Positions 3,001 through 9,000 of a DNA stretch of 63,899 nt are shown here, in pieces; the first letter of the stretch is position 1; the number at the start of each line of letters is the position of its first letter. This stretch comes from a virus (Duplodnaviria > Heunggongvirae > Uroviricota > Caudoviricetes): the IMG/VR virus record IMGVR_UViG_643348545_000007; one strand, given 5' to 3'. A program made the position numbers.

Positions 3001-6000
3001 TGTTTTCCCCAGGCCAGCGCTTTAGCGTTAACTTCCGGAGCCACACCGGTGCAAACCTCAGCCAGCAGGGTGTGGAAGTAGGACATTTTCATGTCAGGCC
3101 ATTTCTTTCCTGAGCGGGGTTTTGCTATCACGTTGTGAACTTCTGAAGCGGTGATGACGCTGAGCCGTAATTTGTGCCACGCATCATCCCCCTGTTCGAC
3201 AGCTCTCACGTCGATCCCTGTACGTTGCAGGATAATGTCCGGTGTCATGCTGCTACCTTCTGCTCTGTGACTTTCTGTTTCAGGAATCCAAGAACCTTCA
3301 CAGCTTCAGCCTGTGTTAGTTCTGAAGATGTGTAAATGTTGCGGCGAAAAATCTGGGAACAGAGCGGCAACAGGTCGTCATCCCACGTTTTTTCCATGGA
3401 AGTAAGAAGGGCGTTAATTTCCGACATGGTTTCTTCGTTAACCGGGGTGATGTCGCGTTCCGGCTGACGTTCTGTAGTATATGCAGTATTTTCGACAATA
3501 CGCTCGGCTTCATCCTTGTCATAGATGCCAGCAAATCCGAAGGCCAGGCGAGCACACTGAATCATGGCTTTGTGCCGTAACATCCGTTTGGGATGCGACT
3601 GCCACGGTCCGGTGATTTCTCTGCCTTCGCGGGTTTTGAATGGTGCGCGGCGACATTCATCCATCCACTCGGTAACGCAGATCGGGTGATTGCGATCTTT
3701 GCGGTAAATCCGGCATGTACAGGACTCATTGTCCTGCTCAAAGTCCATGCCATCAAACTGCTGGTTTTCATTGATAATGCGGGACCAGCCATCAACGCCA
3801 ACCACCGGAACGATGCCGTTCTGCTTGTCAGGGAAGGCGTAAATTTCTTTCGTCCAGGGATTAAGGCCGTACTGGTTGGCGACGATCAACAATGCGATAA
3901 ATTGCGCATCGCTGGCATCACCTTTAAATGCCGTCTGGCGAAGAGTGGTGATTAGTTCCTGTGGGTCGACAGAATCCATGCCGACACGTTCAGCCAGCTT
4001 CCCTGCCAGCGTTGCGAGTGCTGTACTCATCCGTTTTATACCTCTGAATCAATATTAATTTGGTGACGGGCGATGGTTTCAGCCATGTAGCGGATGTGTT
4101 CTGCCATGCGTTCCTGAAAATCGACATCGTCATCAAATGCACGGGAAATAGCTTTTTTGCTGGCCCCGTGACGTTGCAGATTATCGATGCATAGCGATTC
4201 AAACAGGTGTTGGGGCAGACCTTTTTCCAGGTCGTCTGCCAGCTCAGCTTCAGTTTCTTCACGGGCAATTTGCTGGTAGTGTCGTGCCCATGACTGCTCT
4301 TCAATGCGATCGGGGATAAGCCAGGCATTCATGATTTATCACCTCCGAAATTTTCAAGCCTGTTGGCAATCATGATGGCGATATCAGGGATTGCTGGCGC
4401 TGTGGCTATACATGCGGGGTTGGCGCACAAACCATAGACGGCGGCAATCACGAGCTGTCTTTTCCAGTCGAGAGTTACTGGCTCAGAATTGGCGTCATCG
4501 CCGGACGTATCACTGCCTGGCTCGTTCTGAACAACGGTTTCGCCCTCCTGAGCGGCATCAACAGAGTTTTCCTGAATGATCTTCTCCTCAGTTTGTGCAG
4601 AGTCTTCTCCATCAGCGGCGTCATTTTCTCCAAAAGTTTCTGTGTAAGTGCTATCGCCCATTACCGCACTACAGTCAGGGCAGTTACCCCCGCCAGTCTG
4701 ACCACAGACGCGGCAGTTTTTTTCCAGCTCCGGTTGCGCTACTGGCCCTGGCTGTTGCTCTTCTGGCCCGTTTTGTTGCGTATCCGGGCTGTTTTGTCCC
4801 GCTTCTGGGGCAATTTGTTCCACTTTGGACTGATTCTGGTCCTCAGTGTCGCGAGTCTGGATCCCCTTCACCCACTTCGGATCAGCAGGGTTACTGATGC
4901 CTTCAACGAATTCTCCACGCGAGGCAGCCAGTAATTTGTCGGCATCGACTGGATTTTTTGGGGGGATGTTTTCCCTGGCTTTATTGAGTTCCTCCCTCAG
5001 TTCCTGGTATTTCGTTTCTACAGATGAGACATTTTCCAGTGATTGCGTGTCCGCATTATGTTTAACTGGAATTTCTTCCACTGATTCAGGCGCTGCCTGT
5101 TCATTAGACATTGCGTCCGATGTTTGCTGCTTTTCTTCATCGTCATGTATCTCTTCTGCTGTTCCGCGCTGCGGCATTGGGGCTGATGAGCGACCGCAGG
5201 CGATTTCCACGATTTCCGGATCCGGGTTAGAGTGATCGGTTTCGGTCAACACTTTGTTGAGATATTCAGTCACGCGCGCCGGGATAGCCTCAATGCCGAT
5301 TGGTGCTTCTTTCACTGAAGCCACCACAATGGCGCGGGAATAATCCAGCCCACCGGGCATGGCGATGAATTTGTCACGGAAAACAGAAAAGGGCGGCTTA
5401 TTCTCTGACACGATTTCTTCAACGCGTTTTGCGTGTGCTGGGTGCAGGTTATAAATATCCACATCCATTGAACGGGCCAGAACGCCAGTGGCAATGTCTC
5501 GCGCCAGTGATGCCTGATTGTGGGTAAAGCCTTCGCCACGATCGGTAAGATTTCCGCCGCCAGCGTTAGCACCGGAAGGCGTACGAGTGATGCCTGTAAC
5601 ATAATTTCCTTTCTGCCATTCTTTTGCCAGCAATCCCTGATCCACATAGTCTGTTTTCATCCAGGTGGAGATGAACTTGTCGAATTCAGCCGGGCTGATG
5701 CGATGATTTGCAGAGTGGGGGAATGCTTTCCCTACAGATTCAGCCAGGCGACTAAGGTGATAGTTCGTCAGTTTATCCAGTTCATGATGCGCGGCGCGCA
5801 CAGCAGTAAGCAGGCTCTGAAGGTAACTGTCCTCTGTGTCCATCTCCATACGGATCACGTTATTGCGTTGTTCTGGTGTGGCATGATGCCGGTATTTTCC
5901 ATCTTCATCTTTGCTGAATAAGAAGAGGTGAAGGAAGCGATGAGTAAGGCTCAGAGTGGCGACGGGAATTTCACACTCAGAACAGTCATCGTCGCTGTCC

Positions 6001-9000
6001 GGGGATTCGCTTTTCTCCACATCATCCGGAATAGTTCCGTCCAGGTTATCGTTGTCATCGCCAGCAGTTGTGGCATCTTCACCGTTGATGTTGTCATCGA
6101 AGGGGATAGCCATCATGGTGATGCCATCGTTACCGCCTTTTTCATAGCGGTTGCAGAATTCAGTATCAAACACGCCTTCCGGTGGAAGGTCATTCACGAC
6201 GGGGAAATTTACGCGAACGGGTTTTTTGAAATCATCCTCGTCGTAGCCTGCATCGTCCATGGCTGCAATGCAGCGGGAAACTGCGACAGAAAGTTTTCTG
6301 GCCTCGGTCCAGAAAAAACCGCCTTTGATGCCAAGGCGTTTTCTGACTTTATCGTTTTTTGCTTCGCAGTGTAGTGCAAAAGTCTGTTTATCAGCGCTCA
6401 TTGTATTTAAACCTCTGGCTGGATTAGAATTAGCGGCCCTTTGTCTGATTTCTCCGAATACGGTGACGCAGGGAGAAATCCGGTAGCCTGCGCTGCCGGA
6501 TTTTTATTTCAGTGGAAGGTTGCCTGGTTTGCTGTTTTGTGAGTTGTTTTTCCCTTTTCGTGCTGGCATTCAGGGCAGTCGCACTCAGAATTTTCTCTTG
6601 CAAACTCAAGAGCCTGTGCAAGTGTATGGATTTGTTGTGCTCCAATGTTGCTTCTGACGACTTCACATGCAGCATGAATATATGGGCTTGGTGTTTTGCC
6701 ATTTAACCCACATAAAACAAAACGACTGTCCTTATATTCGTTATTTCCAACTTCTGTAAGCACTGAAAAAGAAAATACAAAGTCGATTTTGTATTCTTTG
6801 CATATTTTACTGATGCGTTCTGCAATTTCTTCGAGTTCATTTATTGCATCAGGACTGGTTTCGGAAAATATTTCATTTTGCGCAAGTTCTTTCATTTTGA
6901 TTTTTCCGTGATTGATAATTAATGCGGTTTTATTTCGGCTTGTCTGTTACAGATATGGAAGGTGTATTTTATTACTCGTCACAACGACGCTGCTTTTACG
7001 GGTAAGCCATCGCGCCCGATGAAAACTTTAATCATGCAGTCGGTAATGCATGTTTTTGTTGTGAAGTTACGAATATAGAGTTTTCTCTTTTCAATATTGT
7101 TTGCTGAAGCGATATATGTCCGACCTTCATGAAGAACATAATCGCCAGGCGTCACGCACTGACGTGGTATTTCATCAGTTCCGAAGTGATGAGCAATCAT
7201 AATTATCTCCATTTTCACAAATGAACTTTGTTGATGCGGTGCCTGGTGCCTCCAGGTGACGTTAACCAGTTAACAACTAACGCCGGGTCAGGGGACGATG
7301 ACTTTCCGTGACATCCTGTCGGTTTAACTGTTCCGCGTGCGCATAGCCGCATTCACCGCATCACAAAATTCACTTTAAAAAGGGCGGACATCAGCAATCG
7401 GCAAACCGATGTCCGCCAAGGGCTACACACAGCAATGTTGTTATTCACAACCGGAAGCGCACGGTCGAAGAAATCTAACGACAAGCCTTCAATGGGAAAG
7501 AGTCTTCGCCGTGCACTTTCGTGTTGTACCCTGGCTTTCAGGGTAATGTCTGTTCAGTAAACTGAGAGTGCCGGAACTTACCCGTGTCCGGCGCACGATC
7601 TCCACCTCACCCGTGGAGAACTCCTCAACTACAAACCCCGTAAGGAGAGTGAATTTATGACACAAGAAGAAAAAGTGATGTTTCTGATGCGGCTGGCTGT
7701 CGATACCTACAACACACAATTCAGGGAGAAAGATATACCTCAAAAGGCAGTTCCTGCTGCGGTAGATAAGGGCGGTGCTATTGCCGTATTTTACGATGCA
7801 TTTGAATCATTTTTTAATGAAAAACTCGACGCTGTTAGCGGCTTCGGAACATCGAGTAATAAATAACGTTCATTACGGTTCTTAAACAACAATCAGTGGG
7901 CTTGATGTTGTTCTTTTCAAGCTCACTTGCCATCACTTCCATTATTCTTGCACTTACACGAATTATTTGGTGGCTGTAAGCGATGCAACTGTCGCTGATA
8001 TTGCTGTTTATTTCTATTACTTCATTTTCACCATTAGCATCAACTTCGGATGCGCTGTTTTCATTATCCTGTTTCAGTGCTTTTTCTGCCATCTGGATGC
8101 GTGTCAGCGTTGCGGAATTTGGGCTAAGTCGATAAACCTGTCTGGCATCTTCCAGAAGCAGGGCGATAATGTGCTTCAGTTCTGTTTCGTTCATAGTTAA
8201 CTCCGGTAGTTGCAATTTATTAATATCAGGCGGTCAGCTCTTTAAGCTTCTGAACTGCTTTATTCATTTCATCCATACAGTCGATGAATTCGTCCAGTTT
8301 AAGCTGCATTTTTCCGGCGGCCTGAAGAATTTCAAGTTTTAAGGGCGCAAGTTTTTTGTTGAATGCATCATCTTCCTGGCGTTTTTTCTCCGCAATTTCG
8401 GCGGCTTTCAGCAATTCTTCAGCCTGTTTTCTGAGTATTTCTGGTGAAGGTGAAACTGCTTTGAGGTTATTCATTTCAGGTTCCTGTTGTTGCAGAATTA
8501 ATTTGTTGCATTCTCTGCGTGAGCGTTTCATTGCAGATTCGCACTTCTTGCAATAAATGGCTCTCCCGTCACGCTTGCTGGCATCTGAATAAAAATCATT
8601 GACTGATTTTGTCTGCCCGCATCTGGTACATAATTTTGATTGAAGGTCCTTAATGATTGTGACGTTTCCTTCCCGTTTGGGATATCCATATTTTTTGTGG
8701 CGGAAAAAGGTTACTCCGTTACCAGAACCTTCTTTTCTGACCTTAAATACAATGATGCTTTCCCGTTTATCGATAAAATCTATGAGCTGGTTTCTCTCCT
8801 TTCCTGACAGTTCGGCAAATGTCTTAACTTTTTTAGTAACTTCCGTAAGGCGAACTCCATCAGGCATTTTTTCAACGAAGTTTTTAATCTCTGCAAGCGG
8901 ACGCCATAACTTTTGCGGCAAAACTGAAGGCGTGGTCATCAATCACCTCGCCGTCAGTTGTTTTGATTTCCGGTAGCCTGCCGCGTAAATGGCTACGTTT

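Follow-up and report, generated by a model that had tools for sequence, protein, structure and literature searches.

A nuclease-less RecE-family protein with a conserved helical tail in the gam-bet-exo operon of a lambdoid prophage

The nuclease domain of RecE, the exonuclease VIII of the Rac prophage, lies within residues 564-866, and its structure is present in the PDB (PMC11611040). The function of the homologous N-terminal part is called unknown or unclear (PMC11611040, PMC11610958). The role of this ~590-residue region has been a question for decades, and the widely used technique of linear-linear 'direct cloning' owes its efficiency to full-length RecE. Nuclease-less 'RecE-2' proteins have been noted in lambdoid early-left operons, with their roles left open (Genome Res 2025, PMC12315714). 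Here we analyse a 63,899-nucleotide stretch of phage DNA (Caudoviricetes, IMG/VR record IMGVR_UViG_643348545_000007; the window), in which a gene at 4329-6401 on the minus strand, taken from the list of open reading frames (ORFs), encodes a RecE-like protein of 690 amino acids (aa). On sequence grounds, its predicted product is the N-terminal scaffold of RecE without the nuclease and belongs to the RecE-2 class.

A BLASTP comparison of the window protein with K-12 RecE shows 52% identity over RecE residues 50-555 (E 4e-176), and a block of ~160 residues (aa ~250-412) is almost identical in the two proteins. The N-terminal family PF06630 ('Enterobacterial exodeoxyribonuclease VIII') is matched with E 1.9e-12 and 47.9 bits against a cut-off of 25, and phrog_607 is matched with E 7.7e-258 over profile positions 1-618 of 883. 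The NF007259 equivalog is matched over positions 1-598 of 877, and its 734.8 bits stay under the cut-off of 1269. PF12684, the PDDEXK nuclease family, has no match in the window protein, while the same library finds it in K-12 RecE at residues 615-850 (E 4.1e-28). Nor is a nuclease domain seen in the predicted structure. In the alignment with K-12 RecE, the nuclease domain is replaced by a tail of ~45-47 aa carrying the motif QQLTIAALQGLCANP. In a sister allele (P0117, locus L023), the DNA homology to K-12 recE ends at nucleotide (nt) 1762, which is codon 587. With the RecE nuclease placed within residues 564-866, this puts the swap at the boundary of the domain. The relationship to the RecE proteins of Rac and Gifsy-1, the lack of a nuclease domain in the predicted structure and the location in a lambdoid early-left operon are all found here, as described for RecE-2. 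The protein had been taken for a large uncharacterised one in an earlier sequence-only reading of this DNA; the remote-homology check with its clear RecE-family result does away with this view.

The domain anatomy is resolved by AlphaFold2 (whole protein, 21-sequence alignment, mean predicted local distance difference test, pLDDT, 65.5). Ratios of nonsynonymous to synonymous substitution rates (dN/dS) were obtained by the Nei-Gojobori method between the window gene and five alleles (L001, L014-L017). All parts described here are on the minus strand. The N-terminal alpha/beta domain (aa 1-100, 6102-6401, pLDDT 71-89) is followed by an acidic disordered linker (aa 101-144, 5970-6101, pLDDT 31-41), which has a net charge of -8 to -10 per 30 residues and differs among homologues in both sequence and length. 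The all-helical core (aa 145-412, 5166-5969) has a pLDDT of mostly 73-95, with 65-67 over aa 271-290, and a dN/dS of 0.04-0.15; of all scaffold parts it is detected most widely among family representatives. A second acidic disordered linker (aa 413-458, 5028-5165, pLDDT 27-54, dN/dS about 0.95) leads to helices at aa 459-477 and 487-494. Directly after the latter helix stands an invariant linear motif, RGEFVxGISDPxDPKW (aa 495-510, 4872-4919). Residues 512-641 form a long disordered acidic region, within which a Cys4 knuckle is found at aa 563-577 (4671-4715). The last acidic disordered linker (aa 578-642, 4476-4670, pLDDT 29-41, dN/dS 0.65) connects to the C-terminal tail of two helices (aa 643-690, 4332-4475, dN/dS 0.12), which takes the place of the RecE nuclease domain.

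With 124 Asp and Glu against 66 Lys and Arg residues, the protein has a net charge of -58 and an isoelectric point of 4.55, and its acidic, disorder-prone stretches cover aa ~101-144, 413-458 and 578-642. No tandem repeats are found in these acidic regions. No fold match is obtained in the PDB or in BFVD (Foldseek against BFVD, nothing at E <= 0.001), and the PDB sequence search with the protein and with the family profile yields nothing but a C6 match by chance (E about 1). Among the fold and family searches, no match points to a biochemical activity. We also considered the helical core as an enzyme and rejected this, since no polar residue is invariant across the tail-type subclass.

Among the proteins of Enterobacterales that bear the tail, no other part is as conserved as the tail itself. 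In 21 tail-type sequences with 21-31% overall identity to the window protein (except one at 65%), seven of the ten invariant columns fall in the tail (L650, A653, A654, G657, C659, N661, P662). Its consensus reads LTYxQQLTIAALQGLCANPA...DDIPxMAxxLA, and aa 645-682 of the window protein carry the subclass motif [YW]xxQL[TV][IL]AA[LV]xG[LM]CANP ... P.[IM]A..[IL]A, located within the last ~50 residues. With a tail-rich alignment, AlphaFold2 predicts two helices at aa 644-684 with a pLDDT of 86-90. The tail is a real domain and not the by-product of a recent rearrangement, because it is invariant across genera, confidently predicted and held at a dN/dS of 0.12. In the phage collection it is found solely at the end of the RecE-like gene. 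A separate small gene for the tail elsewhere was rejected, as the short database proteins that consist of the tail alone are fragments or result from frameshifts. A role as membrane anchor is unlikely, since the family consensus is amphipathic with Gln, Asn, Asp and Tyr residues. The proposal that the tail is a peptide for docking onto Exo, Bet or Gam of lambda is weakened by 29 divergent tail-type loci without these genes nearby. In five loci (L055, L056, L063, L064, L068) the tail lies in a short ORF of 75-164 aa, although the tblastn match extends over much or all of the protein; such copies carry a frameshift, a truncation or a sequencing error.

The family is modular. Our search of 1.84 billion representative proteins gives 204 relatives at E <= 0.001; a second large search, made with the family profile, brought up essentially these E. 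coli proteins again. The 87 representatives of at least 400 aa were sorted by local BLASTP with domain probes. Their C-terminal modules are PDDEXK (~20), Rv2179c-like DEDD (~16) and the tail (~24), with a few other endings. PF16473 is confirmed by Pfam in three E. coli prophage proteins. Thus, one scaffold bears a 5'-3' PDDEXK nuclease, a 3'-5' DnaQ-like nuclease or a tail, depending on the phage. Proteins of 813-847 aa with parts of the RecE scaffold and the Rv2179c-like DEDD domain are encoded at L003 5001-7544, L004 3589-6060 and L005 5001-7442. All three loci have dicB-ydfD on one side of the gene and xis-int on the other, and no annealase is found in the vicinity. Such DEDD-type proteins are very common: 1387 of 5426 genomes match parts of our query, which also included gam. 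In one further protein (P0124, 703 aa), the RecE scaffold is joined to a RecT-like C-terminus (...MAKKTAIRRLFKYLPVS...), either as a natural fusion or as a frameshift artefact.

The linear motif is shared between these architectures. It is found in 27 of the 87 representatives, in proteins of the PDDEXK, DEDD, tail and other types and at differing protein positions. Residues R495, E497, G501, S503, P505 and W510 are invariant in 24 sequences with tail, DEDD or other architectures. Both the Gifsy-1 and the Gifsy-2 RecE-like genes carry it. In phage records it occurs only in genes annotated as exonucleases, under names such as exodeoxyribonuclease VIII or RecE, and in a few unannotated records, and the records belong to Escherichia, Shigella, Salmonella and Klebsiella phages and one Actinobacillus phage. 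The region around it (aa 461-525) has a dN/dS of 0.10-0.14. Being not folded alone in the model (pLDDT about 63), RGEFVxGISDPxDPKW looks like a docking motif inside a disordered region.

The Cys4 motif behaves differently. It consists of two CxxC pairs with a short spacer (C563-x2-C566-x7-C574-P-D-C577) and a CPxC(G/S)-type knuckle, as in zinc ribbons or rubredoxin-like knuckles, and it is conserved in K-12 RecE as CNACGQTGGDNCPDC. Its dN/dS is 0.16-0.17 at a synonymous rate (dS) of 1.44. Only 7 of the 87 representatives carry it, and in the E. coli family member P0118 a gap of 26 aa deletes it. The AlphaFold2 pLDDT of the knuckle is below 50, even where most alignment rows carry the motif. 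The sequence-only reading had placed a Cys4 motif at the C-terminus. The four residues Cys563, Cys566, Cys574 and Cys577 are indeed present, but they stand 113 residues before the end, are poorly resolved and are rare among representatives. We read the motif as an optional cassette rather than a defining feature, a predicted zinc knuckle which is under purifying selection where present.

Selection acts on the whole gene, with a dN/dS of 0.21-0.28 that indicates purifying selection. Together with an ORF length far beyond chance, this value confirms the acidic 690-aa ORF as proposed from the sequence alone. The disordered segments aa 413-460, 526-560 and 591-642 are the least constrained parts (dN/dS 0.65-1.06). 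In the same pairwise comparison, patches with a dS of 0 adjoin patches with a dS of 0.5-1.4. The gene is thus an intragenic recombinational mosaic with frequent recombination between alleles. The full gene together with gam is present in 79 of 5426 complete E. coli genomes, HUSEC2011 among them, and one allele is recorded on 456 contigs. Selection and spread together make a decaying remnant very unlikely.

In the window the gene belongs to the early-left operon, with the order cI - N - ... - kil - orf128 - RecE-like gene - gam - bet - exo - xis - int - wrbA. A Shine-Dalgarno-like AGAGG (6412-6416, minus strand) is located 10 nt 5' of the ATG start. At the other end, the TGA stop of the gene overlaps the ATG of gam as ATGA (4329-4332, minus strand). 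The gam gene (4036-4332, minus strand, 98 aa) is a full-length match to PF06064 (E 4.8e-65) and is followed on the same strand by bet (3245-4030), exo (2568-3248), xis (1939-2223), int (576-1910) and wrbA at the window start (1-579). Between 3900 and 7400 no sigma-70-like promoter is detected, against a mean of 3.7 sites in shuffled sequences, which agrees with read-through from pL. In this phage the gene is expressed within the early-left operon and is translationally coupled to gam-bet-exo.

We compared this arrangement across 80 IMG/VR loci, with 50 counted as E. coli-type and 29 as divergent tail-type (25-47% identity). In 49 of the 50 E. coli-type loci gam starts 3 or 25 nt before the stop of the gene, so the coupling by overlapping stop and start that had been noted for the window holds among its close relatives. 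E. coli and Shigella phages all have the order kil - orf128 - gene - gam, with the prophage at wrbA or at ynfG, and the comparison across wrbA-integrated and other phages finds it kept. Even alleles of 65% identity keep it, and after gam either bet-exo or an AAA_24 (Sak4-like) gene follows. At one locus (L038) the ORF that begins at the stop of the gene is best matched by Bet, not Gam. None of the 29 divergent tail-type loci has an adjacent gam, bet, exo, recT or Sak4-like gene; they continue into small ORFs (Rrf2-like, DUF1187, DUF7740) and then xis-int. The same arrangement is found at eight loci in Buttiauxella, Citrobacter, Lelliottia and Cedecea genomes. The gene is therefore truly coupled to gam in translation, yet only in the E. 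coli lineage, and the proposed co-expression with Gam stands for this lineage and not for the divergent relatives. As these loci are free of gam and Red genes, the function of the protein is not generally dependent on Gam or Red.

How could a RecE scaffold act without its nuclease? We favour, with moderate confidence, a non-catalytic RecE-family scaffold with a tail in place of the nuclease, which serves as an adaptor in the phage module for DNA ends and recombination and works through protein-protein contacts. The scaffold and its invariant motif would dock onto a partner that is conserved and probably of host origin. In place of the nuclease domain, the hydrophobic tail would either make the scaffold oligomerise or bring in a partner in trans. 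This reading is suggested by the usual fusion of the scaffold to exonucleases of either polarity, by the invariant motif and by the hydrophobic helical tail. The homology to RecE, the absence of the nuclease, the domain anatomy and the selection on folded parts, motif and tail are shown, and the mechanism, activity and partners of the adaptor are what we infer from them; this already weighs against the proposal. Further points do so as well. The 29 divergent tail-type relatives stand directly before xis-int with no adjacent gam, annealase or exonuclease, so a role tied to Red or Gam cannot be general. In work of 2012 by Fu and colleagues, the N-terminal part of RecE was reportedly inactive in trans, which, if so, argues against a free-standing scaffold that simply boosts recombination.

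A host-takeover or anti-defence factor, as the sequence-only reading had suggested, is a less likely alternative. Here the lone scaffold would block or hijack a host nuclease, repair or defence complex alongside Gam, by means of the invariant motif and tail or of acidic stretches that mimic DNA. The early-left site agrees with this, as do the net charge of -58 and the coupling to Gam, an inhibitor of RecBCD, which 49 of the 50 E. coli-type loci show. The motif is near-identical among proteins of 25-40% identity, which suggests a highly conserved, possibly host, target, and the divergent relatives without an adjoining phage recombinase could act on their own. However, no PADLOC match (E <= 0.1), no relevant Pfam or PHROG family of defence or anti-defence and no fold match of that kind is found. 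The acidic stretches, which might suggest DNA mimicry, are under less constraint than any other part of the protein; near-neutral (dN/dS 0.65-1.06) and variable in length, they are unlike a shaped DNA mimic. Moreover, the normal fusion of the scaffold to exonucleases speaks for DNA processing rather than inhibition. The host-takeover proposal is left unsupported by these searches, although they do not refute it.

A bolder idea is still less probable. In it, the RecE scaffold would be a docking platform for a conserved host hub of DNA metabolism via motif and core, and the lone tail-type form would hijack or inhibit this hub together with Gam. If this were true, phages would deliver a 5'-3' nuclease, a 3'-5' nuclease or nothing to the hub, a new early-left host-takeover or anti-repair factor would be at hand and the role of the RecE N-terminus would be explained.

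It is very improbable that the gene is an evolutionary leftover, an open but functionless ORF that remained when the nuclease end of recE and recT were displaced by an incoming gam-bet-exo. The sister allele that shares recE DNA homology exactly to the nuclease boundary and then switches would fit such a history, and so would the mosaic structure of the gene and the few IMG/VR copies that appear truncated or frameshifted (the five short-ORF loci above). But all folded segments, the motif segments and the tail have a dN/dS of 0.04-0.17, the tail is conserved in Buttiauxella, Citrobacter, Lelliottia and Cedecea proteins of 21-31% overall identity, and intact copies number in the hundreds. Selection and conservation thus largely refute this reading.

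That the protein is a true exodeoxyribonuclease VIII is hardly credible, as only database names speak for it, while PF12684 (K-12 RecE residues 615-850) is absent, NF007259 is missed by a wide score (734.8 bits against 1269), no PDB sequence match is obtained though a RecE nuclease structure is deposited (PMC11611040), and the core has no conserved catalytic pattern, with the D389-H390 positions varying among relatives. The absent nuclease domain predicts no 5'-3' exonuclease activity on double-stranded DNA. GenBank, RefSeq and PHROG name the gene 'exodeoxyribonuclease VIII', 'RecE family exodeoxyribonuclease' or 'exonuclease VII', and judged by the predicted domain content these names are wrong as to activity. 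Hundreds of E. coli and Shigella prophage genes are mis-annotated as 'exodeoxyribonuclease VIII' in this way, among them the gene in HUSEC2011, a human isolate from Frankfurt, Germany.

Several neighbours of the gene deserve mention. The gene had been assigned to the kil/cIII position of the early-left operon. This is not correct, since a kil homologue (6979-7218, phrog_294, E 1e-37) and orf128 lie upstream and the gene is an extra one between kil and gam. No lambda-like cIII is recognisable among the small ORFs at 7219-7835, from kil to the next large early-left ORF. The conserved upstream neighbour orf128 (6509-6895, minus strand, 128 aa, phrog_2016) ends in CDCPECQHEKGK and, throughout the E. 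coli lineage, separates the RecE-like gene from kil; the products of orf128 and of the RecE-like gene may act as partners. Some sister phages have a YdaE-like zinc-binding ORF of 57-58 aa in the gap between kil and orf128 (L001 5253-5426, L023 4250-4426). It is absent at 6896-6978 of the window and in several other phages. In divergent genera, a small CxxC...CxxC ORF is located immediately 5' of the tail-type gene. Farther upstream, two overlapping ORFs occupy 9824-11130 (minus strand) between N (8943-9326) and cI (11177-11890), the slot of rexAB in lambda. The ORF of 180 aa has a weak match to DUF6978 and matches PADLOC PDC-M24A (E 3.8e-4), and the ORF of 258 aa matches DUF1828 and PADLOC PDC-M24B (E 5.4e-7). 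The two are a candidate for a defence pair encoded by the prophage, and they are also present in L022.

The gene itself is already known: numerous genomes carry it under a wrong annotation, and the class without nuclease received its name in 2025. As far as the searched literature shows, five points are new to our knowledge: that the conserved tail marks the class, that the scaffold is combined with three alternative C-terminal modules, that a linear motif is invariant, that the putative zinc knuckle is optional and that the coupling to gam is restricted to one lineage. Since some phages preserve the scaffold under selection although the nuclease is missing, it is a functional module in its own right. 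For the search for partners it offers three small and sharply conserved handles, namely the helical core, the linear motif of 16 residues and the tail of 45 residues. For the biology of Shiga toxin (Stx) phages, the gene belongs to a module expressed on induction together with Gam-Bet-Exo, and no virulence or defence effect is shown.

A comparison of the window protein with described systems places it closest to Rac RecE (E. coli K-12 b1350, 866 aa). The N-terminal domain, the core, the linear motif and the Cys4 motif are common to both, and both genes lie downstream of kil in an early-left operon of lambdoid type. The two proteins diverge over the first ~50 residues and over the 100-240 region. 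The main difference is at the C-terminus, where Rac RecE has its PD-(D/E)XK domain (~588-866) and the window protein a helical tail of 45 aa. Rac RecE also pairs with a downstream recT, whereas the window gene is followed by gam, bet and exo; the window Bet falls in the Pfam RecT family PF03837, and gam stands between bet and the RecE-like gene. The description of RecE-2 fits the window protein, and that paper gives no anatomy (PMC12315714). The DnaQ-like (Rv2179c-type, PF16473) proteins of dicB-ydfD-type prophages (such as WP_000102188.1 and WP_000034474.1) have parts of the N-terminal scaffold in common with the window protein, and their DNA matches nt 1-289, 770-1748 and 1450-1745 of the window gene. 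PF06630 is scored by WP_000102188.1 and WP_000102136.1 but not by WP_000034474.1. Their genes occupy the same distal early-left site before xis-int, but they encode a C-terminal 3'-5' DEDD exonuclease in place of the tail and have no adjacent gam or annealase. Lambda Gam and other acidic DNA-mimic inhibitors are likewise acidic, early-left and co-expressed. They have no similarity to the window protein in sequence or fold, and the acidity of the window protein resides in poorly conserved disordered linkers, not on a structured surface.

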